A stretch of 64,000 nt of DNA from an uncultured Candidatus Saccharibacteria bacterium. Lineage in GTDB: Bacteria; Patescibacteriota; Doudnabacteria; UBA920. The translations under genes were made by a program, and so were the position numbers. The stretch spans positions 3,957-67,956 of the forward strand of contig CAYVNU010000003.1 of NCBI GenBank assembly GCA_964453265.1, read 5' to 3'. The notes beneath the pieces were generated by a model, which saw nothing but the letters and a program-made list of their open reading frames with translations, had not been told where the DNA came from and ran no database searches. Shown in pieces: positions 10,770-63,453 of this stretch (its first letter is position 1; each line of letters opens with the position of its first letter).

Positions 10770-11093
10770 GACTAAATATTTTATTGGAATATTCCAGGCC
10801 ATACTTAACGCCTGCCCCACCGCAGCGGCTATCCGCAAACCCGTAAAACTACCCTGGCCTTTGTATACAATAATCTTTTTAAGCTCAATTTTTGGATCTT
10901 TAATCTTATTTGATTTCAAAAATATATCCAAGTCATTTAGAATTTCCGAACTTTCACGAGGCTTCACGGCAAAAGACTTCTGCTTGTCTTTTTTCCCCGA
11001 TTTAGATAGTTTAAATACTAACTTTCCATATTCAGCGGTATCGATCTGCAGGATATTTTTGTCAATTTTGTTCATTTTTGTCATTTTTGTCAT
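10749..11093 (-). CDS. tsaB: tRNA t6A biosynthesis protein TsaB-like (short, N-terminal domain only)
   Basis: KGQGSFTGLRIAAAVGQALSMAWNIPI matches the GPGSFTGxRIG core of TsaB/YeaZ; only 114 aa; N-terminus encoded by a 9-bp tandem repeat. Confidence 0.55.
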   Translation of the reverse strand: MTKMTKMNKIDKNILQIDTAEYGKLVFKLSKSGKKDKQKSFAVKPRESSEILNDLDIFLKSNKIKDPKIELKKIIVYKGQGSFTGLRIAAAVGQALSMAWNIPIKYLVKKTLRS

Positions 11094-11097
11094 TTTT
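11060..11097. repeat. 9-bp tandem repeat (tttgtcatt x about 4) forming the overlap between Mur ligase C-terminus and tsaB-like N-terminus
   Basis: ttgtcaattttgttcatttttgtcatttttgtcattttt; encodes KNDKNDKNEQN in one gene and MTKMTKMNKIDKN in the other frame. Confidence 0.8.
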
Positions 11098-12612
11098 ATT
11101 TAGTTCTTCTTTCGCTACGCTTACTTCGTCCCATTCTATGCGATGGTTCCCGGGCAAAACCAAAAATTGTTCGCTACCCTTGCCGGTAATTAAAACAATA
11201 TCATTTTCTTTAGCCAGTTTCAACGCTTCAGCTATGGCATAACGCCTGTCTAAATGCCGCTCTATCCTTTTCTCTTTTCTCTTTTCTCTTAGAACTGTAT
11301 TTATTCCCTCTTCAATATCTTCCGCTATTCTTTCCGGATCACTATCATACACATCGTCGTTGGTGATTATAATGGTGTCAGCAATTTGTGCGGAAATTTG
11401 TCCAAATAAAAATCTTTTTTGCACATCGCGGTGCCCGCCCGTTGAACCAAATACATGGATTAATTTGTTGTGAGGCAAGCTACTTGCAGCCATTAGCGCT
11501 GCTTTTATAGAAACCGGTTCGCAACCATAGTCTACAAAAATTTTAAAGCCTCTATTATTTTCCACTTCTTCCATTCTCCCGCGAATTTTTGTAAAGGTAG
11601 ATATTGCTTTAGCCGAGTCTTCTAATTTTATACCAAGCTGGTTGGCTGTGACCGTAGCAAGCAATGCATTGTACAAATTAAATTCGCCGGGCAGTTTAAC
11701 TTGAAAAGTTACATTGCCAATTTGAAATCCGTCATTCAATTTATTCGCCTTAATATAACTAACCCCCTCTAACTCCCGCTTTGACAAGGGGGAGGATTCA
11801 GAATTCCCCTCCTCTTTAAAGGAGGGGTTAGGGGAGGTTATATTTAATCTGGTTGATATTTTTTTCTCCGCATTAAACTGTAAAAACCACTCAGCATTTT
11901 CATCATCCCCATTCACAATAATAGTTTTGCTGACTTGCTTACCGGCTGACACGCTTACCAGCTTACTCGCTGACTCACTTACCGCTTCAAACAACTTTCC
12001 TTTCGCCTTTCTATAATTTTCAAACCCGCCGTGCGCTTCTATGTGAGCGTGAGACAAATTAGTTAAAACTGCTAAGTCAAACTTTATTCCCAAATGTCTG
12101 TTTTGCGCCAAGCCCTCCGACGTACATTCCACCACTGCGTATTTACAACCGTTATTTAAAATTTGTCTAAGCTGTTTTTGTAAAAGCCACCCGCCCGGCA
12201 TACTTAAACCGTGTTTGTTTATATATTCCGTTTTCCCGTCAAAAAAACTTACGGTGGTAATAAACCCCGCTCCACTTTTTATTGTACTTTTTACGTTTGT
12301 GTCTTTTGTGCTTAATTCCATAGCAACCTGATCACTACTTTTAACATCTGAAAAGTGGGGCGGGGTAAACCCACAACTCTGCTTTCCCTCCTCTCCCTTA
12401 AGGGGAGAGGCTGGGTGAGGGTGGTAATTTAAAATGCTCGATAACATCTGCACCGTAGTCGACTTCCCTGCCGTTCCAGTAACTCCTACTACAATCATTT
12501 TTGATGACGGATTACCAAAATACCAACTCGCCACAATAGCTAAAAACCCGTGGTAATACGGGCGTAAAAATTTAAGTACTGTATTGGGAATAATTTTTTT
12601 TATTAAATTCAT
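11062..12612 (-). CDS. murE: Mur ligase family protein, MurE-like (UDP-MurNAc-tripeptide synthetase) carrying in-frame palindromic-element insertions
   Basis: VGVTGTAGKSTT P-loop, LTNLSHAHIEAHGGFENYRKAKGKLF, C-terminal FGSTGGHRDVQKR and ITGKGSEQFL; two inserted segments (HPHPASPLKGEEGKQSC and PSFKEEGNSESSPLSKRELEG) encoded by palindromic repeats. Confidence 0.8.
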   Translation of the reverse strand: MNLIKKIIPNTVLKFLRPYYHGFLAIVASWYFGNPSSKMIVVGVTGTAGKSTTVQMLSSILNYHPHPASPLKGEEGKQSCGFTPPHFSDVKSSDQVAMELSTKDTNVKSTIKSGAGFITTVSFFDGKTEYINKHGLSMPGGWLLQKQLRQILNNGCKYAVVECTSEGLAQNRHLGIKFDLAVLTNLSHAHIEAHGGFENYRKAKGKLFEAVSESASKLVSVSAGKQVSKTIIVNGDDENAEWFLQFNAEKKISTRLNITSPNPSFKEEGNSESSPLSKRELEGVSYIKANKLNDGFQIGNVTFQVKLPGEFNLYNALLATVTANQLGIKLEDSAKAISTFTKIRGRMEEVENNRGFKIFVDYGCEPVSIKAALMAASSLPHNKLIHVFGSTGGHRDVQKRFLFGQISAQIADTIIITNDDVYDSDPERIAEDIEEGINTVLREKRKEKRIERHLDRRYAIAEALKLAKENDIVLITGKGSEQFLVLPGNHRIEWDEVSVAKEELNKNDKNDKNEQN

Positions 12613-13646
12613 CTTTTAAACACTCTATTAACCGCTCTTAACAAACCATAAAGCCAATATTCAAAAGGCTTAAAAATTATATCATAAGCGCCCGCATATT
12701 CCTTAATAGCATTTTCTAATGTTGAAAAGCCTAATTTAAACCGCACAAACCCTGGCGTGTCCCCGCCCGCAGTTTCTATACCCCAAAAATCGTATTCAGT
12801 AAGACCTGCTACTTTTGCATCTAACATAGCCTTAAAATGAAGTAAGTACGGCGCCATAAGATTTTTATTTTGGTCTGAGGATCCGCCAAATAAATAAGTA
12901 CGGGTTTTTCCGTAGTCTATTATTATTGCGCTGGCTAGCAGTTGCTTGTTGTAAAGCGCCTTATATACATGCAGTTTTAAATCGCCCTGCGGATTCTGAA
13001 TTGCAAAATAGCTAATTAATTTTTCAAAATAGTCTGGGCTTTGCGCTTTATAGCCCTGCCTCTGGGAAGTTTTAGCTATTAATTCTACAGCTTCTTTAGC
13101 TAAAAGTCCTTTGCCGTTTACTAAATGAAATTCGTCTTTAATTTCTACGCCATGTTTTTGCGCTAAGCGAATATTGTAACGCGTCTTATGATGCATGTCC
13201 GCCAAAAGCTCTTCCTCGCTTTTAGTTAAATCTATAACAAGTGTTTTCCCCGGTTGAATATTTTTGGTTTTGCTAACTTGCTTATTTGCTAACTTGCTTA
13301 TTTGTCCCTCTTCTTTAGGCTCTACTCTAATAAAAACCGCATCCACAAATTTCTTTTGCAATCCCTGCAGCAACTCGTCACATGTTACCCGTAACCCGTC
13401 ACCTATTATTGGTCCATAAGGCGCATATAGATAATATTTACCAAAAGGTAAAGACATTTTTATTAACTGCGCTACCCCTACGGTCTCCCCGCTTTCAACT
13501 TGCAACTTTAATCTTGTAACTTGCCGCCCAAGGCCGACCTGCCAGTCGCCCCATTCCCAACTTTGCAAAAAACTGCCCGCTTCTTGGGCAGCAACAAAAT
13601 TATTGTATTCGATTTTTTCATTCTCTAATAATTCCTTAAGCTGCAT
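12609..13646 (-). CDS. FemAB-family aminoacyltransferase (peptidoglycan interpeptide bridge formation)
   Basis: 345 aa, SWEWGDWQ N-terminal motif and overall FemX/FemAB-like layout; 4-nt overlap with upstream Mur ligase gene suggests operon. Confidence 0.6.
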   Translation of the reverse strand: MQLKELLENEKIEYNNFVAAQEAGSFLQSWEWGDWQVGLGRQVTRLKLQVESGETVGVAQLIKMSLPFGKYYLYAPYGPIIGDGLRVTCDELLQGLQKKFVDAVFIRVEPKEEGQISKLANKQVSKTKNIQPGKTLVIDLTKSEEELLADMHHKTRYNIRLAQKHGVEIKDEFHLVNGKGLLAKEAVELIAKTSQRQGYKAQSPDYFEKLISYFAIQNPQGDLKLHVYKALYNKQLLASAIIIDYGKTRTYLFGGSSDQNKNLMAPYLLHFKAMLDAKVAGLTEYDFWGIETAGGDTPGFVRFKLGFSTLENAIKEYAGAYDIIFKPFEYWLYGLLRAVNRVFKR

Positions 13647-13696: not shown

Positions 13697-14251
13697 TTAC
13701 TTTCCAAGTAATTTTAACGCCTGCTTTATTTGCTCGCCCGTAGTTGCCACTGCATCTAACTTGTTAATTATGCTTCTCACTTCATTTTGCTTATACCCTA
13801 AAGCAATAAGTGCATCAAACACCTCACTGCTTCCACCTGTCACCCGTAACCCGTCACCCGTCACTTTTCCTTTTAGCTCCACTATTATTTTCTCCGCTGT
13901 CTTAGTCCCCACTCCCGAAATACGTGTAAAAATTCCGGCATCTTGGTTTGCAATCGCAGATTTTACCGCATCTACCCTTGCTGACGATAGTATAGCTAAA
14001 GCGACTTTCGGACCTACCCCCGAAACAGTAATAAGCATTTCAAAAAACTGCAAAGTGTTAAAGTCAGACAAACCAAAAAGACTCTGTCCGTCCTCGGAAA
14101 CTTTGTGATATATATAGAGCGAAAGACTATGGCCAATTCTGCTTTCTAAAACTTCCGGCGTTACAAAAACCTTATAACCTACGCCTTGATTTTCAAGGAT
14201 TATAAAGTTAGTAGCCTTCTCTAATATTTTTCCTTGCAAAAAAGCAATCAT
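13697..14251 (-). CDS. ruvA: Holliday junction branch migration protein RuvA
   Basis: 184 aa, MIAFLQGKI start, helix-hairpin-helix GVGPKVALAIL motifs; contains in-frame GDGLRVT repeat insert. Confidence 0.9.
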   Translation of the reverse strand: MIAFLQGKILEKATNFIILENQGVGYKVFVTPEVLESRIGHSLSLYIYHKVSEDGQSLFGLSDFNTLQFFEMLITVSGVGPKVALAILSSARVDAVKSAIANQDAGIFTRISGVGTKTAEKIIVELKGKVTGDGLRVTGGSSEVFDALIALGYKQNEVRSIINKLDAVATTGEQIKQALKLLGK

Positions 14252-15100: not shown

Positions 15101-15250
15101 TATTTGTCGTATTAGTCTTATACGTCCTATAGGTCTTATGTGTCCCATAAGACCTATCCGTCCAATTTGTCCTATAAGTCTTAATAAGTCCTATTTGCCT
15201 TATAAGACTTATCAAGCTGTCCGTCCTATCAAGTCCCGTCCTATACAATT
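15101..15250. repeat. array of palindromic GTCCTAT(A/T)AG(A/G)TCTTAT-type repeats upstream of uvrB (candidate operator array)
   Basis: at least six gtcctat copies, embedded palindromes cctatagg, cttataag and aggtcttatg-N4-cataagacct; a related copy at 45345-45382. Confidence 0.6.
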
Positions 15251-21184: not shown

Positions 21185-21865
21185 ATGAAAAATCATATTA
21201 TTCTTTTGGCCACGCTATGCGTGGCCACCCTGTGTCCAAGGGGGGCGCTTGGACAATGGGAGGCCGAGGCGCGGCTGGCGCCTCACACTCCCAAAGAATT
21301 TTCGGAAGGACATGGCGAGTCCTTCCGGAACGTGGGGGAGGCATGGTTCCGTCTCCCCTCCCTGCGGGGTTTCCGCGGGGAAACAGGAGCCTTCCGGACC
21401 GGCGACTCGTTTGTCGCCGTGTTCGGAGTTGAAAAGGAGTTGGCACACGACCAACTCCTGCCAGGCATTTTTGCCTGGGTTGATTCCGGCGGCATCCGGC
21501 CTGCCGCTGGGATCTCGTGGGCTCGGCATAGCCGAGTAGCTTTAGAGGGGCACGCCATTATGGCGTCCCCGAAAAAACTGCTCGGCCGCAGTGACGCAAG
21601 CCTAAGCCTCACAAGAGGCTTTGCGCTTGGTGTTACTGCCGAGCTAGACCCTGCCCCACACGGCAGGGCGTGGGGTTTGGGGCCTCACGTTAAAAAACAA
21701 ATCAAAGGAGCCGAGCTGGTGCTCGGCCACCTTTGGAAAATTGAAGGGGAAGGAGCCGAACGCCACGGCGAACCTTCCACTCACCCCATGAACCGCGAAT
21801 GGTTCGTGGGTATTAAATTCGCTCTCGGCCACCCCAAGGCCGAGGGCAAAAAATCTCACCACTAG
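21185..21865 (+). CDS. secreted hypothetical protein on second GC-rich (about 62%) island; possible outer-membrane beta-barrel/lipid A deacylase-like
   Basis: N-terminal signal peptide MKNHIILLATLCVATLCPRGALGQ, glycine/aromatic-rich, C-terminal EWFVGIKFALGHP; all six frames open across 21198-21862 as expected for GC-rich coding DNA. Confidence 0.5.
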   Translation: MKNHIILLATLCVATLCPRGALGQWEAEARLAPHTPKEFSEGHGESFRNVGEAWFRLPSLRGFRGETGAFRTGDSFVAVFGVEKELAHDQLLPGIFAWVDSGGIRPAAGISWARHSRVALEGHAIMASPKKLLGRSDASLSLTRGFALGVTAELDPAPHGRAWGLGPHVKKQIKGAELVLGHLWKIEGEGAERHGEPSTHPMNREWFVGIKFALGHPKAEGKKSHH

Positions 21866-21876
21866 CTGATGAGTAG

Positions 21877-21912
21877 GGGCCAGGACATAGCGTTCCTGTC
21901 CCCTTGTTTTTT
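21877..21912 (+). terminator. rho-independent terminator
   Basis: cagga-catagcg-ttcctg hairpin then ccccttgTTTTTTTTc. Confidence 0.6.
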
Positions 21913-22028: not shown

Positions 22029-22298
22029 ATGCCAAATACTAAATCCGCAATGAAAGCCATGCGCCAGTCTATTACCAGACGCGCACGAAACATTGCCCAA
22101 AAAGATACTTTTAAAACCGCAGTTAAAGAAGTAAAAAAACTTATTACTGCCGGCAAAAAATCTGAAGCCATGGAAGCCATGAAAAAGGCTATGTCCACTT
22201 TAGACAAAGCCGTTAAAAAAGGAGTAATTAAGAAAAATACTTCTTCTCGAAAAAAATCCAGAATGGCAAAAGCTATAGCAAAATTAAAAACCGCTTAA
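22029..22298 (+). CDS. rpsT: 30S ribosomal protein S20
   Basis: MPNTKSAMKAMRQSITRRARN N-terminus and lysine/alanine-rich 89 aa typical of bS20; terminator hairpin aaaaccgc-ttaa-ggcggttttt overlaps stop. Confidence 0.9.
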   Translation: MPNTKSAMKAMRQSITRRARNIAQKDTFKTAVKEVKKLITAGKKSEAMEAMKKAMSTLDKAVKKGVIKKNTSSRKKSRMAKAIAKLKTA

Positions 22299-22306
22299 GG
22301 CGGTTT

Positions 22307-22719
22307 TTAATTTGTATAAAGTATTATGTATTGGGTATTGGGTATAAGGCTTCTACAGCTCTTAATTAAACCATGTATTAACTTATCGCACTTTAATGAT
22401 TGGTTTTCGATCTCCCTATACTTTTCTTCTTCTAAATAACCAATTCCTTTACTTAAATCTGCCTGGCTCCTAACTTCTGTTAGAGAGCCCAAAGCTGTAT
22501 AATAAAATTGAATCTTTTCCTTAAATGAATTTCTGCTAAAGCCTTCGCAATATTTGAAGCAATGGAAATTACAGCCCGTCTTATTTGCGATGTAATGCCA
22601 AACAATTCTTCTTTTGGAAAATTTTTAGTAATCTTATAGACTAAAATAGCTAGATTATAAGCTTCCTGCCAAGCGTATAAATCACGAAATGATTGTATTT
22701 TGTTTTGCGCCTTATACAT
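22307..22719 (-). pseudogene. four-helix-bundle protein gene (23S rRNA intervening-sequence protein family) disrupted by a -1 frameshift
   Basis: N-terminal part QSFRDLYAWQEAYNLAILVYKITKNFPKEELFGITSQIRRAVISIASNIA then frame change; +2 frame continues EGFSRNSFKEKIQFYYTALGSLTEVRSQADLSKGIGYLEEEKY, i.e. the family consensus NIAEGFxRxSxKEFxxFLxIAxGSLxE; a single missing G at about 22541-22547 restores the frame. Confidence 0.7.
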
Positions 22720-22739
22720 TATACCTAATACCTAATACC
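22328..22739. mobile_element. inverted-repeat-flanked cassette carrying the four-helix-bundle pseudogene (IVS-like hairpin element)
   Basis: about 20-bp terminal inverted repeats made of GGTATT(A/G) heptamers: gtattgggtattgggtata (22328-22346) and tatacctaatacctaatacc (22720-22739); repeats abut the start codon and overlap the C-terminal codons. Confidence 0.55.
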
Positions 22740-22743
22740 TATT

Positions 22744-23763
22744 TTATTTTTTATTTATCAAATTGACTACTAGCTTTACCATTACTTCCTTCTGGCCTCT
22801 GTCGCTCTCCGCAACTAAGAGCGCCAGAGCAGCTAAAGCGGTGTCGTTAATTTTTCGCTCACCCTTTTTATTAAGCAGATAATTATTTTCAACTAAGAAA
22901 AGTAAAAACAACAAAGACCCAATGCGTTTATTGCCATCAACAAACGGATGGTCCTTAATACAAAAATAAAGCAAATGAGCAGCTTTTTCTTCTATGGAAG
23001 GATACAAAACTTTTTTATCAAAAGTCTGTTCAATGTTGCCTAAAACAGCTTTAAATTTTTCCCCCACCTCTTGCCCAAACAAACCACCCGCTTCTTTTTT
23101 AACTCCCAACCTTTGTTTAAATTGTAAAATAGATTTTTTTACCTCTTCATACTTTAGACTTTTAGACTCTTTCTTGCTTACGTCCTCTATTTTTAGCTCG
23201 CCTTTGTCATACAAATTCAAAACCGCCCAAGTGTTGGCATAGTCAGAAATAATACTTAACAGTTCTTTTTCGTAACCTGTGGCTTTTTGCGCCTGTATTA
23301 AATTCTGAAATAATTTAACAGTTTGCTGAAGTTCTTTTAAATGTAAATCATGTTCCTTCTTTAATTCCGTAAGCCTTTTTTCATTAACCGCATAGCCTTT
23401 AAGCAAATAATCTTTTAGCCTCTGAGTCGCCCAAATACGGAATTGAGTGCCGCGTTTAGACCTAACTCTATACCCCACAGATATAATTACATCTAGGTTG
23501 TAAAAATTTACAGACCTCTCTACTTGCTTTGAACCCTCGGTTTGAACTACCCGGAATTTCCGGGTAGTTTGATTTTGGCTTAATTCAGCCTCTTTATAAA
23601 GACTCTGGATATGTTCCGATATGGTATCCCTATCTTTATCAAACAGGTCAGCCATTTGAGCCTGATTAAGCCAAACAGTTTCGTCTTCTAATTTTACTTG
23701 AATCTCTGTGCCCGTCTGATCCTTGTATATAATAATTTCACCTTTTTTTATTTCTTCGGTCAT
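22744..23763 (-). CDS. RhuM-family N-terminal domain fused to Fic/DOC domain protein
   Basis: N-terminal WLNQAQMADLFDKDRDTISEHI...RKFRVVQTEGSKQVERSVNFYNLDVIISVGYRVRSKRGTQFRIWAT matches RhuM virulence-protein family; C-terminal HPFVDGNKRIGS is the Fic HPFx[DE]GNGR motif with K for G. Confidence 0.7.
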   Translation of the reverse strand: MTEEIKKGEIIIYKDQTGTEIQVKLEDETVWLNQAQMADLFDKDRDTISEHIQSLYKEAELSQNQTTRKFRVVQTEGSKQVERSVNFYNLDVIISVGYRVRSKRGTQFRIWATQRLKDYLLKGYAVNEKRLTELKKEHDLHLKELQQTVKLFQNLIQAQKATGYEKELLSIISDYANTWAVLNLYDKGELKIEDVSKKESKSLKYEEVKKSILQFKQRLGVKKEAGGLFGQEVGEKFKAVLGNIEQTFDKKVLYPSIEEKAAHLLYFCIKDHPFVDGNKRIGSLLFLLFLVENNYLLNKKGERKINDTALAALALLVAESDRGQKEVMVKLVVNLINKK

Positions 23764-24079: not shown

Positions 24080-27028
24080 TTAGCGAAGGAGAGTCATTTC
24101 TTCCATCTCTCCCCAATTATCCCCCACCTTGCCTTCCACTTTTATAGGAACCGAAAGTGATATAGCTTGTTCCATCATTGGAATTAACTTCTTCGCCCAC
24201 TCCTCCACTTTGTCTTCCTTTACCTCAAAAACCAATTCGTCATGCACCTGAAGTAGCATGCGAATTTCCGAGCTTATTGGCTTATTAGCTGAACCGATTA
24301 TTAGCTTGTGAATATTAATCATCGCCACTTTAATTACATCGGCCGCCAAACTCTGAATAGGAAAATTCACTGCCGCTCTTTCCGCTGCCGCGCGTATAAA
24401 AAATTGCCCTGACTTTATTTCCGGAAACTTTCGCATTCGGCCTAGCTCATTACGTACAAAACCTTCTTGGTTAACTTGGAGCTTTACCTGCTCTATATAC
24501 TGCTCAACCTGGGGGTAAGCTTCAAAATATTTTCTTATGTATTGTTTCGCGTCGCCCATTGTCATTTCGCCAACTCGTGCCGATAAACCAAAACTAGATA
24601 CTCCATACAAAATTCCAAAGTTAATAGTTTTGGCATCACGCCGCATATCTTTTGTAAGTTGTTCTGATGATACGCCAAAAATTTCCATAGCCGTCTTACT
24701 ATGAATATCTTCACCATTCTTAAACACTTCCATCATCTTTTTGTCTTTAGCCAAATGCGCCACAATGCGAAGCTCTATTTGGGAATAGTCTAAAGACAAA
24801 AGTTTATAACCTTTTTCCGCCACAAAGGCTTTTCTTACCTGACTGCCCAAGCCTTCACCCCGCACAGGGATGTTCTGCAAATTAGGGTCAATGCTGGAAA
24901 GCCGCCCCGTTGCCGCAATAGTTTGGTTATAACTCGTATGTAGCCTGCCGGTTTTTTTATTTACCATTTCCGGTAAAGTTGTAAGATAGGTACTATACAA
25001 CTTTGTAACCTCTCTATACTCTAAAATTTTTGGAATTATGTCGTGCTGTCCAAGCATCTTCTCCAAGTTATCAGCAGAAGTTGAAACGCCCGTCTTAGTG
25101 CGCTTGTTATTCGTCGCCTCAAGCTTCATTTCGTCAAACAAAACTTCTTTAAGCTGCTTAGGCGAAGCTATATTAAATTCGTGTCCGGCTAATTTATGAA
25201 TTTTCTTTTCTAAATCTTTAATATCTATTTCCGCCTCCCCGGCAAGACGGTTTAAAAGCCTAACGTCTAACTTAATGCCGTTTAATTCCACGTCTGCTAA
25301 AACTTCCATTAAGGGCATTTCTATTTCTGTAAATACTTTAGTAAGATTATTCTTTTTAAGTTCCGGTTCAAACAACTCTTTTAAACGCAAAGTCATATCT
25401 ACGTCTTCACAGCAATACCAACTGACTTTCTCCTTTGGTACTTGATCCATTGTGATTTGGTTCTTACCGACCCCAATTAGATCGGTTATGGGCTGCATTT
25501 GGTAGCCCAGTTCGTTAAAAGCCAAAGCATCTAAACCGTGCTGTCGAGTACCGGCGTTAAGCAAGTACGATGCGATCATGGTATCAAAACTAGCAGTAAG
25601 TTGTAAGTTGTAAGTTGTAAGTACTTGCTTGTCGTACTTTATGTTGTGACCAATTAACTTAACCTTACCCGATGTAAGCAGGGTTTTTAGTTCAGTCGAT
25701 GATGTAAAAAGTTTCGCCGGAACATAAAAAGCCTTACCTGGCTTATCGCATAACCCAACTCCCACTAATTCCGCGGTAATTGGGTCAAGGCCTGTGGTTT
25801 CTGTGTCTACACTAATTTCTAAAGCAGATGACAATCCCTTCATCATCTTCTGTAATTTTTCTTCTGTATCAACAAACTCATAATCCTGCTTTCCAATACT
25901 ACCACCTCCCCCGCCTGCGGCGGGTACTCCTCCTGTTCCAGGAGGAGAGCTTCCACCGTCGCTAAAACTACGGCGGTCAGTCTGCAGCTCGCCCGACGAA
26001 GCCTTGGCGAAGTCGGGAGCCTCCCCTCCTAATATAGGAGGGGTGTCGCCGTTAGGCGACGGGGTGGTATTTTTCGGCAACTTATTCAACAAATTCCTAA
26101 ACTCCAAACTCTGAAATAACTTCACAGTCTGTGACAAATGTTCTTGGTCTAATTCGTAAGCTTTTATTTCCGGGTCTATGCCCGGCACGTTGCACACTAT
26201 AGTAGAAAGTTCGTAAGACATTTTAGCCTGATCTTCCTGCTCAAGCAATAAATTAAGTATTCTGGATTTGAAATTGGAAATTTTAAAATTATTTGGAAAT
26301 TGGAAATTGGAAATTGGAAATTTGGCGCCTTGGGTTTTAGCTTCAAGATGCAATTTATCGTACAATTTTTCCAATGATCCAAAATATTTAATTAACTCGC
26401 TGGCGCCTTTCTCTCCTATGCCTTTAACTCCCGGAATGTTGTCACTCGGGTCACCTCTTAAAGCTTTGTAGTCCACCATTTGGTCAGGGTTCAGCCCAAA
26501 CCTAGCTCTTACCGCTTTACTGTCGTATATAACTGTATCTGCAAGTCCTTTGCGCGGCGTGTAAATTTTTACTTTGCCGTTTACTAACTGCAAAGTATCC
26601 ATATCGCCGGTTAAAATAAATATTTCAGAATTCTCGTGACTTTTTTCATGAAAGTGTTTAGACAGCGTGCCTAAAACGTCATCCGCCTCAAAACCTTCCT
26701 TTTCGTAAATTGGCACATTCATTGCGCGCAACACATTTTTAATAACCGGTATTTGGTCGTACAAAGCCTGGTCAGCTTTTACTCTGGTTGCTTTATATTC
26801 TTTATATTTTTCATGCCTAAAAGTCGGCCCGGCTAAGTCAAAAGTCGCAGCTACATGAGTAGCCTTAATTTCCTTCATGGCCTTTAAAAATATAGTTAAA
26901 AACCCAAATACGGCGCCCGTCGGCCTACCGTCTTTGGTAGTTAAAGTAGGCAAAGCATGGTACGCCCTATGTACCAAAGCATTACCGTCTATAAGTAAAT
27001 AACGTTCTTTTTGTACTTTTTCCGGCAT
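24080..27028 (-). CDS. polA: DNA polymerase I (5'-3' exonuclease, 3'-5' exonuclease and polymerase domains) with low-complexity inserts
   Basis: 982 aa; 5' nuclease N-terminus, polymerase motifs LSLDYSQIELRIVAHL (motif A) and QVHDELVFE (motif C); GC-rich insert 25899-26072 and 7-bp microsatellites inside the linker. Confidence 0.93.
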   Translation of the reverse strand: MPEKVQKERYLLIDGNALVHRAYHALPTLTTKDGRPTGAVFGFLTIFLKAMKEIKATHVAATFDLAGPTFRHEKYKEYKATRVKADQALYDQIPVIKNVLRAMNVPIYEKEGFEADDVLGTLSKHFHEKSHENSEIFILTGDMDTLQLVNGKVKIYTPRKGLADTVIYDSKAVRARFGLNPDQMVDYKALRGDPSDNIPGVKGIGEKGASELIKYFGSLEKLYDKLHLEAKTQGAKFPISNFQFPNNFKISNFKSRILNLLLEQEDQAKMSYELSTIVCNVPGIDPEIKAYELDQEHLSQTVKLFQSLEFRNLLNKLPKNTTPSPNGDTPPILGGEAPDFAKASSGELQTDRRSFSDGGSSPPGTGGVPAAGGGGGSIGKQDYEFVDTEEKLQKMMKGLSSALEISVDTETTGLDPITAELVGVGLCDKPGKAFYVPAKLFTSSTELKTLLTSGKVKLIGHNIKYDKQVLTTYNLQLTASFDTMIASYLLNAGTRQHGLDALAFNELGYQMQPITDLIGVGKNQITMDQVPKEKVSWYCCEDVDMTLRLKELFEPELKKNNLTKVFTEIEMPLMEVLADVELNGIKLDVRLLNRLAGEAEIDIKDLEKKIHKLAGHEFNIASPKQLKEVLFDEMKLEATNNKRTKTGVSTSADNLEKMLGQHDIIPKILEYREVTKLYSTYLTTLPEMVNKKTGRLHTSYNQTIAATGRLSSIDPNLQNIPVRGEGLGSQVRKAFVAEKGYKLLSLDYSQIELRIVAHLAKDKKMMEVFKNGEDIHSKTAMEIFGVSSEQLTKDMRRDAKTINFGILYGVSSFGLSARVGEMTMGDAKQYIRKYFEAYPQVEQYIEQVKLQVNQEGFVRNELGRMRKFPEIKSGQFFIRAAAERAAVNFPIQSLAADVIKVAMINIHKLIIGSANKPISSEIRMLLQVHDELVFEVKEDKVEEWAKKLIPMMEQAISLSVPIKVEGKVGDNWGEMEEMTLLR

Positions 27029-59718: not shown

Positions 59719-60523
59719 CTTCAGATAAATTTTTAGTTTTTTCCCCAATCTTTAATTTAGCGAGACTATCACTTACGGTGTCATGACTGACTTTAATATA
59801 ATAGTCTTCAGCATCAACAATAACATGCATGCCTACATCTAAGATCATTACTTTTTTTTCACCGGTTTTTGTATTTATAATTAAAAACCAAGTATCCAAA
59901 GGATGCGTTTCTGAAATGCTTAGTGCAATACCGTTTTTTTCGGCTAATACCAAATCTTTTTCTATGGTCTCACGGATTATATTTATACTTTCTGGGTCAT
60001 ATTCATATTCTTCAGAATTACTTAAATCAAATATTTCAAACCCGTCTTTAGAAATGTCAGAAATTAATAAAGACTTAATCCCCTGTCTATCCTCCATAAG
60101 TCTTACAGTATTTGGTAAGTTAAATTTATGTTCACCTTTAGGAATTAAACCGTTTATTTTTTTTAACGCCATCATTTTACTGAAGTTTTTTTCAACTTGT
60201 TCATTTACATTTTTTATGATCTCGGGTTTACTTTCTTCCCAAGTAGGTTTACGTGGCACATAAATTCCTGGGTCTTCTAAAGGCTCGTCCTCACTATTTT
60301 TTAACATTTGGAAAGTAGAAACTATAGCATTATCTTTTCGTATAAAACTCTGTGTTAAGGTTCTAGTTTTACTTCCAACACTAACAATTACGTCAACAGA
60401 TCTTACTATGGACTCTACTCCTCCTTTTAGTTCTTCCTGACCTTTTTCCTTTTCTTCTTCGGAAATAAAAGCTTGGCTTTGGCTAAAACCTTGGTCGGGG
60501 TTTTGTTTATAAATCTTGCTCAT
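59705..60523 (-). CDS. hypothetical protein (272 aa)
   Basis: long ORF in operon-like array yebC-ruvC, no recognisable motif. Confidence 0.45.
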   Translation of the reverse strand: MSKIYKQNPDQGFSQSQAFISEEEKEKGQEELKGGVESIVRSVDVIVSVGSKTRTLTQSFIRKDNAIVSTFQMLKNSEDEPLEDPGIYVPRKPTWEESKPEIIKNVNEQVEKNFSKMMALKKINGLIPKGEHKFNLPNTVRLMEDRQGIKSLLISDISKDGFEIFDLSNSEEYEYDPESINIIRETIEKDLVLAEKNGIALSISETHPLDTWFLIINTKTGEKKVMILDVGMHVIVDAEDYYIKVSHDTVSDSLAKLKIGEKTKNLSEDVRT

Positions 60524-61338
60524 TTAAATGATATTAATATTGTCAGTTCCCCTTTAATAGCCGCGCGGTCTTTTAGTTGGTGCATTACTTCGTCCGGATT
60601 GCCGCGAATAAATTCTTCATGTATTTTGGTTAGTTCGCGCGCTACCACAACTTGTGAATTTGGAAAGGCGTTGGAAATATAGGAAAGAGTTTTTAAAATT
60701 CTTTCCGGTGACTCGTAAAAAATTGCTGTGGCTTCAGCGCTTGCTGCAGCTTCCAGTGCCCCAACTGCTTTGGCTGCGGTTTTTTGTAAAAAACCTAAAA
60801 ACATAAATTTGTCGGTAGGTAGGCCGGAAGCAGAGAGTGCAACAATAGCCGCACTGGCGCCAGGAATTGGCACTACACTTACATTTTGTGCCACGCATTC
60901 CCGAACCAGTCTAAAGCCTGGGTCAGAAATTCCAGGCGTGCCTGCGTCGGTAATTAAGCACCCGTTTTCTTTAATTAACCTTCGTGATAACTCTTTAAGC
61001 ACTTGTTGTTCGTTGTGCTCCGCAAACTGAACAATTTCTTTGTCTTTTAAGAAATTTTTAATCTTGATCGAACCCAAATGTATTTGAGCGGAAACTAAAG
61101 AATTCCTTGATTGTCCCATCCCGAGTGCATCCGAGGGATCGCTTTGTTCTTCAGGGTTAAGGGATTCCTCACTGGCGTTCGGAATGGTTGCAGGACTAAG
61201 TCCGTCAATATACTGCAATAATCTCTTGCTATACCCTGGGTTTTCGGCAATTATAAAATCGCACAATTTTAAAGTTTTAATTGCGCGCAAAGTAATATCT
61301 CCTAAATTTCCAATTGGGGTTGCTACGACATACAACAT
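60520..61338 (-). CDS. rsmI: 16S rRNA (cytidine1402-2'-O)-methyltransferase RsmI (tetrapyrrole-methylase fold)
   Basis: MLYVVATPIGNLGDITLRAIKTLKLCDFIIAE N-terminus typical of RsmI; contains an acidic low-complexity insert. Confidence 0.85.
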   Translation of the reverse strand: MLYVVATPIGNLGDITLRAIKTLKLCDFIIAENPGYSKRLLQYIDGLSPATIPNASEESLNPEEQSDPSDALGMGQSRNSLVSAQIHLGSIKIKNFLKDKEIVQFAEHNEQQVLKELSRRLIKENGCLITDAGTPGISDPGFRLVRECVAQNVSVVPIPGASAAIVALSASGLPTDKFMFLGFLQKTAAKAVGALEAAASAEATAIFYESPERILKTLSYISNAFPNSQVVVARELTKIHEEFIRGNPDEVMHQLKDRAAIKGELTILISFK

Positions 61339-61370
61339 AGTATAATTGACAAGAATTAAAAGATTTAAAT

Positions 61371-61789
61371 GAATGACAAGATTTAAGACAACTTGCCCGG
61401 GTGATTTTTAATAGCGGTATTGCGTGAAGCCGTCATAATAGCTGTTATTTCGTCAGCCTCTTTTAACAAATCTTCAACAAAAGATAGTTCTACAATTTCT
61501 GAAGCGATTAATAATTCAAGCCAGCCTAAAGTTTCGTCAGATTCTTCAACCACCGTACCCATTTTAGAAATAAAGTCTTTAGGAGACTTGCATCTGCATG
61601 CTGCGCGGTAGTTACTAAAAACACTGGTTCCTGAGCGCATTATTTGGTCACCAATTTTTTTGCCTGTATTTCCGTGGTTCTTTTCTAGGTATTGTGCAAG
61701 TTTTATTATACTAACCGCAAACTTTTTTGTTCTGGCTTTTAATTCGTTGGGATTCATAATCATTTAAATCATTTAAATCTTGTCATTCT
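61371..61789. mobile_element. inverted-repeat-flanked cassette around the intact four-helix-bundle gene (IVS-like hairpin element)
   Basis: gaatgacaagatttaa (61371-61386, overlapping stop codon) and its reverse complement ttaaatcttgtcattc (61774-61789, 11 nt upstream of start codon); extra atttaaatga direct repeats on both sides. Confidence 0.55.
61383..61763 (-). CDS. four-helix-bundle protein (23S rRNA intervening-sequence protein family), intact copy
   Basis: FAVSIIKLAQYL...IGDQIMRSGTSVFSNYRAACRCKSPKDFISKMGTVVEESDETLGWLELL matches TIGR02436-type consensus. Confidence 0.7.
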   Translation of the reverse strand: MIMNPNELKARTKKFAVSIIKLAQYLEKNHGNTGKKIGDQIMRSGTSVFSNYRAACRCKSPKDFISKMGTVVEESDETLGWLELLIASEIVELSFVEDLLKEADEITAIMTASRNTAIKNHPGKLS

Positions 61790-61800
61790 TTTAAATCTAT

Positions 61801-62076
61801 CTATTCGTCTTTGTTTTCCAGTCCAAACATTTCTTCTATTAGGGCGTACTCGTTGCGTAGGCGTTCCCTGTATTCATTTAGTTCCCACTTTTCATCACCT
61901 GTGGCTTCTTGGTATTTGTCCTCAGTTTGTTCAAGTTCGTCGTTTATAACTTCCATGCGCGCGTAAGCTTCATCTTCTGTTTGAGGCGCTTCTAAAACCC
62001 AGTCTTGATATGAAAGACCTAAACGGTCTTCGTATTTTTCTTCAAATAAATCTCTAACTTTTTCTTCGTCTAACAT
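61801..62076 (-). CDS. small acidic hypothetical protein
   Basis: start chosen at MLDEEKVRDLFEE; the longer ORF-track N-terminus is encoded by a terminator T-tract; weak RBS, speculative. Confidence 0.3.
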   Translation of the reverse strand: MLDEEKVRDLFEEKYEDRLGLSYQDWVLEAPQTEDEAYARMEVINDELEQTEDKYQEATGDEKWELNEYRERLRNEYALIEEMFGLENKDE

Positions 62077-62469: not shown

Positions 62470-63453
62470 TTACAGCGTTGTAATTGGTCTGCTTTGGGTA
62501 ATATAAAATTTTCCTTTTTCAAAAGCCCATTCAATATCTTGCGGTTGTTTGTAGTGCTGTTCAATTTTTTTGCAAATTTTTGCAAGTTCTACAATTTGTT
62601 TTCCGGAAAGTTTTTGCTTGCCGCCTTCTTTTGTAGAAAGTCTTTTATTTATGTTACCTTTTTCAGTTTTTACAATTTTCATATTTTGCTCAGAAATATT
62701 TATGTTCAAAATAGAAAAATCTTTTTTGTCTATTATGTAGGTGTCAGGGGTTATAAGTCCCCCGACTATAGCTTCGCCCAAACCAAAGCCGCCTTCTATA
62801 ACCATTTGATTGTAGTTTTTAGTAACCGGATGCACGGTAAAGCAAATGCCGGAAACTTCGCTCTGCACCATTTTTTGAACAACCACGGCTACACTAATAC
62901 CTCCTCTCCCTTTGGGAGAGGGTTGGGGTGAGGGTTCCTTTTGTTTGGTTGCCTTGTAAAACCCTTTCTCAAACCCGTAAAATATAGCTCTAGGTGTAAA
63001 TAAAGAAGACCAGCACATTTTAACCTGCTTGATCAGATTTTTTTCAGTAACATTTAGGTAAGTTTCTAACTCCCCTGCCCACGAGGCAGTTTTGCTGTCT
63101 TCGGCTGTAGCGGAAGATCTGACAGCAACAAACTTTGCACCAAGTTTTTTATATTCGCCTGATATTTCTTTTTGTAAATTTTCTGGCATCTTTTCCTCTA
63201 ATATTAGTTTTCGTATTTCGCTACTTGCTTTGTCTATGGAACTTATGTCTTTAGGGTTTACTTTTTTTAAAATCAACTGTATGCCAGCCTTGATTTTAGT
63301 TTCTTGTATAAACTTGTCAAAAGCCCCGGCTAAAACTACAAAACCCGGCGGTACGTTTACTCCTGCTTTGCTCATTTCACCCAAAGACGCACCCTTACCT
63401 CCGGCAATTTTTACGTCCTTTTTAGAAAGTTGTAAAAAAGTTTTTATGTTCAT
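62470..63453 (-). CDS. PEP synthase/pyruvate phosphate dikinase N-terminal ATP-binding (PPDK_N) domain protein with in-frame palindromic-element insertion
   Basis: KIAGGKGASLGEMSKAGVNVPPGFVV nucleotide-binding motif; SPQPSPKGRGG segment encoded by repeat at 62899-62934. Confidence 0.75.
   Translation of the reverse strand: MNIKTFLQLSKKDVKIAGGKGASLGEMSKAGVNVPPGFVVLAGAFDKFIQETKIKAGIQLILKKVNPKDISSIDKASSEIRKLILEEKMPENLQKEISGEYKKLGAKFVAVRSSATAEDSKTASWAGELETYLNVTEKNLIKQVKMCWSSLFTPRAIFYGFEKGFYKATKQKEPSPQPSPKGRGGISVAVVVQKMVQSEVSGICFTVHPVTKNYNQMVIEGGFGLGEAIVGGLITPDTYIIDKKDFSILNINISEQNMKIVKTEKGNINKRLSTKEGGKQKLSGKQIVELAKICKKIEQHYKQPQDIEWAFEKGKFYITQSRPITTL

Follow-up and report, generated by a model that had tools for sequence, protein, structure and literature searches.

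Genes for four-helix-bundle (4HB) proteins of the S23p type are classically found inside the intervening sequences (IVS) of 23S rRNA, which raises the question of why two such genes lie between protein-coding genes, each tightly bracketed by inverted repeats, in a 64-kb window (38% GC) of contig CAYVNU010000003.1 from an uncultured Candidatus Saccharibacteria bacterium. The window is the whole stretch of DNA that was analyzed, and all coordinates are window positions unless a locus from another genome is named. Our answer, to which we assign a probability of roughly 0.55, is that both loci belong to a widespread class of cassette in which a 4HB gene occupies the loop of a hairpin and the stem is cut by RNase III within the mRNA of an operon. 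The arms of the cassettes are inverted arrays, each made of about four to five tandem copies (approximately 33 nt) of a locus-specific 7- to 9-nt unit, and the cassette lies in the sense orientation inside its host operon and fills the intergenic spacer. These tandem arrays, and the fact that the design is family-wide, are the main point overlooked by an initial annotation of the window, which had reported simple repeats of 16 to 20 bp.

The intact copy, which we call locus 2, is situated upstream of rsmI and consists of the following features:

61758..61806, minus strand: 5' arm, an array of 9-nt units of the type GATTTAAAT / GAATGACAA on the gene strand, containing inverted-repeat pairs I1-I4
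61383..61757, minus strand: intact 4HB gene of 124 aa, matching the PF05635/TIGR02436 profiles
61345..61386, minus strand: 3' arm, an inverted array of the same unit family as the 5' arm

The 91-aa gene, the cassette, and rsmI follow one another on the minus strand. The 5' arm stops 1 nt short of the ATG, the TAA stop codon (61383-61385) lies within the 3' arm, and the 3' arm ends 7 nt ahead of the rsmI start. The core of the inverted repeat is a perfect 16-nt match, GAATGACAAGATTTAA, at 61371-61386 and 61773-61788 (0.14 expected by chance), and the repeat extends to 34 nt with 88% complementarity (arms 61345-61383 and 61353-61386 on the 3' side). Tandem Repeats Finder (TRF) resolves both arms into arrays with a period of 9 nt, with 4.4 copies at 61758-61797 and 4.0 copies at 61351-61386.

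The mechanically called open reading frame (ORF) of locus 2 (61383-61763, minus strand) scores 51.7 bits against PF05635 (cutoff, 33.8) and 73.4 against TIGR02436 (cutoff, 24); we place the true start at the ATG at 61757 because a database twin (P0001, 100% match) is 124 aa long. The protein matches PDB entry 2RLD (E = 1e-13), and its AlphaFold2 model, with a mean predicted local distance difference test score (pLDDT) of 94, is a single-domain bundle of four helices (residues 3-27, 29-54, 59-85, and 91-118). A Foldseek search with this model returns 2RLD first (template modeling [TM] score, 0.81-0.93), followed by the S23p protein of Xanthomonas (2GSC) and then by Avd proteins of diversity-generating retroelements (DGRs) (8UB7 and 4DWL). 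The nearest named relatives of the RsmI and 4HB proteins of the window come from metagenome-assembled genomes (MAGs) labeled "Candidatus Doudnabacteria" and "Patescibacteria group," and the window has the look of a Patescibacteria (CPR) genome.

The second copy, locus 1, lies beside rpsT and is frameshifted:

22709..22741, minus strand: 5' arm, a heptamer array GGTATTA / GTATAAN on the gene strand, containing pairs I1 and I3, detected by TRF and kept in orthologues
22307..22719, minus strand: frameshifted 4HB gene, composed of ORFs 22480-22719 and 22307-22492, with the profile halves in two frames
22321..22350, minus strand: 3' arm, an inverted heptamer array ATACCCA on the gene strand, containing pair I1, detected by TRF

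Gene order at this locus is the RhuM-Fic gene and then the cassette, convergent with rpsT, whose terminator hairpin (22281-22313, pair I7) is a separate structure outside the arm of the cassette. The ATG of the 4HB gene (22717-22719) falls inside the 5' arm. The arms 22321-22350 and 22709-22738 are complementary over 30 nt at 83% of positions (pattern expectation, 0.00), and TRF reports a period of 7 nt on both sides (2.6 copies at 22328-22345 and 4.6 copies at 22710-22741). The resulting stem is weaker than that of locus 2 and is broken every 7 nt.

The two minus-strand ORFs of locus 1 match the N- and C-terminal halves of PF05635/TIGR02436 (profile positions 1-61 and 67-105, respectively), with scores of 66.0 (PF05635) and 60.5 (TIGR02436) for the first half and 27.0 (TIGR02436; cutoff, 24) for the second. 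They are separated by a 1-nt deletion at 22541-22548 (GCGGAAGG -> GCGAAGG on the gene strand) that is private to the window copy, appearing as a single-column gap (alignment column 231) against intact 129-aa orthologues at 98%, 85%, and 80% identity. The 3' arm of the window copy contains one extra heptamer, a 7-nt insertion relative to loci L166, L169, and L170 (alignment columns 433-439), and the normal in-arm stop codon is therefore displaced, adding 8 residues. One intact orthologue (P0241) carries PF05635 together with PF22296 and matches PHROG 3206, "Avd protein of DGR," at 1e-12.

Within the window, both cassettes stand apart from all other genes. On a single inverted-repeat scoring scheme, locus 2 scores 24 and locus 1 scores 17.5, and each of the other 56 ORFs scores 12 or less, with 12 being the 99th percentile of random windows. 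When each whole cassette is folded as sense RNA, a terminal stem is present in both the minimum free energy and the centroid structures. Much of the initial annotation is borne out by these results: both genes score above the curated cutoffs of the 4HB/IVS-protein family, the ORF does lie in the loop of a predicted long stem, and locus 1 is frameshifted where the annotation had placed the lesion, when judged against three intact orthologues. The tight bracketing by inverted repeats likewise goes far beyond chance, but the repeats themselves had been misread, being tandem arrays of 7- to 9-nt units of approximately 33 nt rather than plain repeats of 16 to 20 bp. The two cassettes had been regarded as independent elements, and they are indeed unrelated in both their repeat units and their proteins (BLASTP, E = 29); they are the only two in the 64 kb, with no near-identical copies in the window. 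Both had also been located outside rRNA, in agreement with the absence of rRNA and tRNA from the window (Rfam gathering thresholds for rRNA) and with their positions between protein-coding genes. No Rfam family matches either cassette.

Other roles for these loci were considered and rejected. The annotation had allowed that the repeats might be generic terminators shared with unrelated genes; there are zero terminator-like sites in 61250-61900 and in 22200-22850, and a function of the arms as promoters or terminators was dismissed, neither signal exceeding the shuffle expectation. There is no PADLOC match that would make either locus a defense system. A DGR was also discarded, there being no YxDD-containing ORF of at least 150 aa anywhere in the window and no template or variable repeat nearby; the Avd equivalog model NF033474 scores 20 against a cutoff of 80.

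The same design recurs well beyond this genome. The surveyed loci, 80 each from species-representative genomes and metagenomes, were picked by homology to the two window proteins, and the census covers the subfamilies of these proteins, which are a part of PF05635. More than 10 phyla are represented, including Patescibacteria, Verrucomicrobiota, Planctomycetota, Bacteroidota, Desulfobacterota, Nitrospirota, Acidobacteriota, Chloroflexota, and others. In none of the 160 homologous loci was the 23S sarcin-ricin motif present, and all of them therefore appear to be free-standing. When the flanks are read directly, an array occurs upstream (for example, GGATTGCG-GGAATGCG-GGATTGCG) and its reverse complement downstream almost everywhere, with each locus having its own unit sequence. 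Inverted-repeat scores for 77 genome loci have a median of 13, with 46% at 16 or above, compared to a median of 6, with 1% at 16 or above, for control ORFs of the same loci (P = 2e-29). When upstream and downstream flanks taken from different loci are paired, the median drops to 7 (P = 7e-20), and with gapped alignment, 69% of 147 loci score at least 14.

A TRF census places 213 of the 364 short-period arrays present in 745 kb within the 320-nt flanks of 4HB genes, corresponding to a density of 4.3 arrays per kb, a 20-fold increase over the 0.22 per kb found elsewhere. Arrays with a period of 7 nt are the most common (120 of the 213 flank arrays), and the copy number of flank arrays is narrowly distributed (median, 4.4 to 4.6; interquartile range, 4.0 to 4.7), yielding arms of approximately 33 nt. 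Among inverted pairs of arrays, 62 enclose a 4HB ORF and 18 are hairpins lacking an ORF; no other cargo was seen in these 62 cassettes and 18 ORF-less hairpins, and the apparent cases of other cargo were rejected, since the genes in question are host genes that happen to have a separate element on each side and the polarity of the arms is wrong. Two finished plasmids from cultured cyanobacteria carry the same design, (AATTCGT)4.5-ORF-(ACGAATT)4 on pNFSY06 of Nostoc flagelliforme and (GATTTTA)3-ORF-(TAAAATC)4 on a plasmid of Gloeocapsa sp. PCC 7428, which rules out an assembly artifact.

The orientation of the cassettes is not random with respect to their surroundings. Based on crude mechanical gene calling, the 4HB gene is co-oriented with its upstream neighbor in 59 of 66 loci, compared to a baseline of 67% (P = 3e-5), and the median gaps to the neighboring genes are 60 and 44 nt, such that the arms essentially fill the spacers. 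The 5' arms contain 250 occurrences of GATT and 100 of AATC, a bias that is mirrored in the 3' arms. A 5' arm that is GAWT-rich on the sense strand occurs in 98 of 142 loci and the reverse in 22 of 142, indicating that the polarity of the element relative to transcription is conserved.

The 4HB ORF is under purifying selection, with dN/dS (the ratio of nonsynonymous to synonymous substitution rates) equal to 0.07 between window locus 2 and locus L001 (dS = 0.44) and ranging from 0.03 to 0.16 across other pairs. In the closest pair, window locus 2 and L001, the arms match at 81 of 85 positions despite this synonymous divergence and so have changed far less than silent sites. Over 230 pairs of loci, the identity of the flanks is 0.63, compared to 0.40 for 4-fold degenerate sites, but the gapped alignment of low-complexity sequence inflates this identity, and the higher conservation of the flanks is suggestive only.

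Comparisons among relatives show that both window cassettes have been inherited vertically at fixed sites. The cassette of locus 2 is present at the same site in L001 (94% protein identity) and L003 (67%), and that of locus 1 adjoins rpsT in relatives (98%, 85%, and 80% identity) regardless of differences in the upstream neighbor. The initial annotation had named relatives with the genes but without flanking repeats as the counterexample to look for; these relatives keep the repeats. It had also suggested that the cassettes are mobile, which is not supported: they occupy the same sites in relatives down to 67 to 80% protein identity, and the analysis turned up neither a transposase nor a target duplication nor a clean empty site.

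The site upstream of rsmI illustrates the fate of these elements. The window, L001, and L003 carry a full cassette there; L163 retains both arms and has an internal deletion of approximately 270 nt in the ORF; and L161 has an ORF-less hairpin whose right arm is homologous to that of the window. ORF-less hairpins built from unrelated units occupy the site in L164/L165 (ATACTAAT), L173 (TAACTAA), and L174 (TACGAAC). Fold z-scores for the ORF-less hairpins of this site range from -2.6 to -8.5. None of the eight related genomes has an empty site, since each carries an array hairpin, whether full, truncated, or ORF-less, and no target-site duplication was recognized, though the arm ends are fuzzy and the search was not systematic. 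Farther along the operon, the rsmI-yebC spacer carries a 4HB cassette in L004, L010, and L164 (interrupted by an in-frame TGA in L164), as does the yebC-ruvC spacer in L174. From their occurrence in three spacers of one operon, it follows that cassettes have moved on evolutionary time scales. Cassettes sometimes decay through frameshifts, nonsense mutations, or internal deletions, leaving a hairpin without an ORF in place.

In relatives without a cassette in the rsmI-yebC spacer, solo arrays with the polarity of a 3' arm (e.g., TCAAATC-TTAAATC-CTAAATC) fill that spacer (L163:3240-3300, L173:2240-2290, and L174:2205-2275); they may have been left behind by cassettes since lost, or they may be elements in their own right.

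By analogy with the IVS of Coxiella, read-through transcription would include the cassette in the operon RNA, and the arms of the cassette would pair into a stem of approximately 20 to 35 bp. A double-strand-specific RNase, most likely RNase III, would then cut the stem, and the cut would release the 4HB message or uncouple it from the neighboring cistrons. On this reading, the classical S23p-bearing IVS of 23S rRNA would be the rRNA-resident special case of a larger population that inhabits mRNA operons.

A number of observations weigh against a stem that is formed and cut in RNA. The arms bear no strand signature of RNA pairing, with G:U-compatible mismatches numbering 83 on the sense strand and 86 on the antisense strand alongside 242 transversions, and the duplex energies of the two strands are equal. 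The complementarity of the arms is mostly due to the presence of one unit family in both, and the mirrored order of the units adds little (identity of 0.83, compared to 0.79 when permuted, with 3 of 32 loci individually significant); owing to this weak permutation effect, we term the arms inverted arrays of one unit family and not exact inverted repeats. Under strict TRF criteria, arrays are detected on both sides in only 50% of loci. No RNase III gene occurs within the 64-kb window. In the lineage of locus 1, the outer stem consists of 4-bp GUAU/AUAC blocks split by uncompensated 3-nt mismatches, with clean pairing for just 9 to 10 bp or so next to the loop; to judge by its sequence, this outer stem would make poor RNase III material, and the case for locus 1 as an RNase III substrate is weak. 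Moreover, a requirement for a plain stem leaves unexplained why the arms are periodic, why their units have a conserved 4-nt core, and why the copy number varies so little. These limits on the evidence for RNA pairing are the reason that a second explanation, in which the arrays are binding sites, is kept alive alongside the hairpin.

According to this explanation, which is tentative and which we give a modest chance of being right, the arrays are putative sites on RNA or DNA for a ring-shaped oligomer of the 4HB protein, which would regulate its own expression; the arrays would serve in this way instead of, or besides, forming the halves of a stem, and so the idea is compatible with the hairpin. 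The protein might also act on the solo arrays and ORF-less hairpins found elsewhere. Such an arrangement would resemble the rings of TRAP and HutP, which bind spaced triplets. Each repeat unit is composed of a conserved 4-nt core and a variable spacer with GAWT polarity, and the copy number is held within a narrow range of 4 to 5, while the crystal forms of relatives are pentamers (2RLD, with five chains). The S23p protein of Xanthomonas is a homopentameric toroid according to Lin (2006), as cited in PMC4990558. The structural relative Avd is an adaptor that binds nucleic acid and reverse transcriptase (RT), and each paralogue has its own unit family, as seen at the two window loci and in the second cassettes of L018 and L125. 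Other arrays near a cassette share its unit in 25% of cases, compared to 9% expected; conversely, 75% of neighboring arrays carry other units. The 7-nt spacing has no obvious match to a pentameric toroid, and from lineage to lineage, the ORF-less hairpins of a given site are built of unrelated units, which favors a structural role over recognition of the sequence. Papers on the heptamer repeats of Nostoc and Beggiatoaceae (bioRxiv 10.1101/2022.06.06.494920; PMC4679880) call for a binding partner, and a broader, more doubtful proposal is that the S23p/Avd-like 4HB ring protein is this missing partner of bacterial heptamer repeats, both the short tandemly repeated repetitive sequences (STRR) and TAACTGA. 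The cassette of each paralogue would then be the autoregulated "master" locus of its unit family, solo arrays and ORF-less hairpins, whether located in operon spacers or even within genes, would be targets or nonautonomous derivatives, and S23p-bearing IVS would be copies that had landed in rRNA.

That the cassettes are mobile at the DNA level, with the arrays acting as terminal inverted repeats and the 4HB protein as an accessory factor, is unlikely and has the least support when set beside the hairpin and the binding sites. ORF-less hairpins would on this account be nonautonomous derivatives moved in trans, similar to miniature inverted-repeat transposable elements (MITEs) or to REPINs, which are built from repetitive extragenic palindromic sequences (REPs). 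The architecture recalls that of the REP-associated tyrosine transposase (RAYT) genes, which are flanked by inverted REPs. The presence of cassettes at three intergenic sites of one operon (91-aa gene, rsmI, yebC, and ruvC) in different lineages, and the frequency of ORF-less hairpins and solo arrays nearby, are what movement would produce; 4HB genes are found on cyanobacterial plasmids, and origins as transposon remnants or mobile elements have been proposed for IVS (PMC4990558). Yet profile and defense scans detected no transposase, nuclease, or recombinase domain in or beside the window cassettes, whose loops contain no ORF other than that of the 4HB protein, the window contains no near-identical copies, and the sites are fixed across relatives whose synonymous divergence is saturated. 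Neither a recognizable target-site duplication nor, in eight related genomes, a clean empty site came to light. It is highly improbable that there is nothing special here, i.e., that the structures are chance inverted repeats, generic terminators, or artifacts of MAG assembly. The window and most of the surveyed loci do come from metagenome assemblies, and AT-rich, low-complexity spacers can yield spurious repeats, but the scores lie well beyond those of controls both in the window and in 77 to 147 loci, the arms contain no terminator-like site, and the design is repeated on the finished plasmids of cultured Nostoc and Gloeocapsa. Coxiella isolates also show matching heptamers and a stem, though inside the 23S rRNA gene.

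Returning to the hairpin cassette as our preferred explanation, what appears to be new is the placement of a 4HB gene inside a hairpin of inverted heptamer arrays in mRNA operons; free-standing 4HB genes and start-codon heptamer repeats were each known. Full-text searches, whose coverage left out most subscription papers, returned no literature linking 4HB genes to inverted tandem arrays and none on IVS-like cassettes in mRNA operons, of which earlier mention is possible. Three things have been treated separately, the S23p ORF of 23S IVS, the 4HB hypothetical proteins (including Avd), and the short tandem heptamer repeats, and the cassettes suggest that a single design underlies all three. If RNase III does cut the stems, then processing elements resembling rRNA IVS would exist in many operons of many phyla, affecting operon mRNA maps and gene annotation. 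A published survey for CRISPR (clustered regularly interspaced short palindromic repeat) discovery lists "23S rRNA IVP" among array-associated genes, and we speculate that the flanking arrays could explain this association of 4HB genes with CRISPR arrays (PMC10910872). The 4HB protein is a cheaply testable candidate for the binding partner of heptamer repeats. Should it prove to be the missing partner, a pan-bacterial protein-plus-repeat system, either post-transcriptional or repeat generating, would have gone unrecognized despite tens of thousands of annotated genes.

Several further features of the window and of the surveyed loci were recorded. An intergenic array upstream of uvrB (15106-15212) contains approximately 10 copies of the 9-mer GTCCTATAA / GTCTTATAA and folds as a pair of strong hairpins (-31.4 kcal/mol; z = -6.4), possibly representing a third unit family in the form of an ORF-less array hairpin. 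A solo array of 4.7 copies of AAATGACAA on the gene strand (11055-11097) belongs to the unit family of the locus 2 arms and overlaps both the stop of a Mur-ligase-like gene and the start of the ORF that follows it, and no inverted partner was found for it. Perfect or near-perfect 7- to 8-nt tandem arrays of approximately 3.4 to 4.4 copies also occur inside essential coding genes of the window, as in polA (26293-26322 and 25596-25622) and ruvA (13834-13864), with additional in-gene arrays at 11267-11290, 13269-13304, 13492-13524, and 11929-11987. The 4.3 copies of TTGGAAA in polA encode FPISNFQFPNNFK, and the addition of three heptamers, amounting to 21 nt, would preserve the frame. The product of polA (24080-27028) has a low-complexity Gly/Pro/Ser-rich insertion between its exonuclease domains, and RsmI (60520-61338) is 272 aa long, compared to 221 to 222 aa in many close homologues, with a variable internal insertion of approximately 50 aa. 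A small GC-rich palindrome is present in two copies, CCTCTCCCTTAAGGGGAGAGG and CCTCTCCCTTTGGGAGAGG (12390-12410 and 62903-62921; 0 expected by chance), both in coding regions, where they give rise to peptide insertions resembling SPLKGEEG and SPKGRGG in the products of a Mur-ligase-like gene and a PEP-utilizing enzyme gene.

Adjoining rpsT is a GC-rich island (21201-21900) with 55 to 66% GC, compared to 27 to 38% in its flanks, and with frames open on all strands; it holds a 226-aa ORF (21185-21865), and relatives L166, L169, and L170 have other genes there. The island may be foreign DNA or an assembly chimera. Among the surveyed loci, L175 (plasmid NC_019759.1 of Gloeocapsa sp. PCC 7428, 12242-12610) has its 4HB cassette between a DUF1156 gene and a Swt1-family HEPN gene, a setting that resembles a defense-type operon on a mobilizable plasmid. 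In Bacteroidales, arrays of the cassette unit ATTGCGG beside the 4HB gene reach 31, 22, and 12 copies (L021, 3498-3713 and 7999-8158; L019, 2556-2666), far exceeding the usual 4 to 5.

How the cassettes relate to known systems depends on which of their parts is compared. REP/REPIN-RAYT systems also combine a gene flanked by inverted short repeats with gene-less hairpins in nearby spacers. The cassettes differ in having no Y1-transposase domain, in being built of tandem arrays of 7- to 9-mers and not of one imperfect palindrome of approximately 35 nt, and in showing no sign of amplification to many identical copies. The RNase III stems around 16S and 23S rRNA and in the early mRNAs of phage T7 are likewise long-range pairings that flank a functional RNA in a polycistronic transcript; unlike the cassettes, they are unique sequences without tandem units, and their cleavage has been demonstrated.

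The window proteins share sequence family and fold with the free-standing "four helix bundle protein" genes (TIGR02436/PF05635; 2RLD and 2GSC) and with Avd (4DWL and 8UB7). Free-standing 4HB proteins are single-domain proteins of approximately 120 to 130 aa, of which a genome may have several paralogues; their genes are annotated in huge numbers as isolated hypotheticals, and flanking inverted arrays are mentioned in no description that we found. The Avd gene of DGRs has an RT and template/variable repeats as neighbors, whereas the neighbors in the window are rpsT, RhuM-Fic, rsmI, and the gene for the 91-aa protein.

The arms of the cassettes resemble the intergenic heptamer repeats (STRR, TAACTGA, and those of Nostoc) in their 7-nt units, their position at the start codon, and their occurrence in the same phyla. 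The TAACTGA direct repeats of Beggiatoaceae, cyanobacteria, and Bacteroidetes form two to six contiguous forward copies that end at or just before start codons (PMC4679880), and the ORF-less hairpin of L173 is built of similar units, TAACTAA / TAACTGG. Both the function and the binding partner of heptamer repeats are described as unknown (PMC4679880; for Nostoc, bioRxiv 10.1101/2022.06.06.494920). Published heptamer repeats are direct arrays that stand singly upstream of various genes, with MacGregor noting one inverted case and no link to 4HB genes (PMC4679880); the arrays of the cassettes differ from STRR and TAACTGA in forming inverted pairs around one gene family, at which they are enriched 20-fold.

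The closest counterpart is the S23p-bearing IVS, as the initial annotation had perceived. One defining feature of an IVS is lacking, namely, residence in 23S rRNA (helix 9, 25, or 45), since the cassettes sit between protein-coding genes (rpsT and RhuM-Fic; the 91-aa gene and rsmI). The ORFs differ as well: intact free-standing ORFs are under strong purifying selection, whereas that of Coxiella is decaying and thought to be unexpressed. The IVS of Coxiella burnetii is a 428-nt element in helix 45 whose 28-bp terminal stem is cut mid-stem by RNase III in vitro, with ends mapped by rapid amplification of cDNA ends, and whose excision occurs without religation (Warrier et al. 2016, PMC4990558). 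Its 5' arm has two to three tandem GACAGAT heptamers and a degenerate one directly before the S23p ATG, and the heptamer copy number differs between strains (PMC4990558). Rotation of this unit gives GATGACA, which is close to the GAATGACAA units in the arms of window locus 2; the tandem arrays that precede the start codons in the window (22710-22741, period 7; 61758-61797, period 9) match this feature of Coxiella, which is not a formal criterion for an IVS. The S23p-bearing IVS, known also from Leptospira, Xanthomonas, and Brucella, and the cassettes are thus alike in enclosing the same protein family in a loop closed by a terminal stem, in having an arm of tandem heptamers and an ORF that is sense to the host transcript, and in their tendency to lose that ORF.

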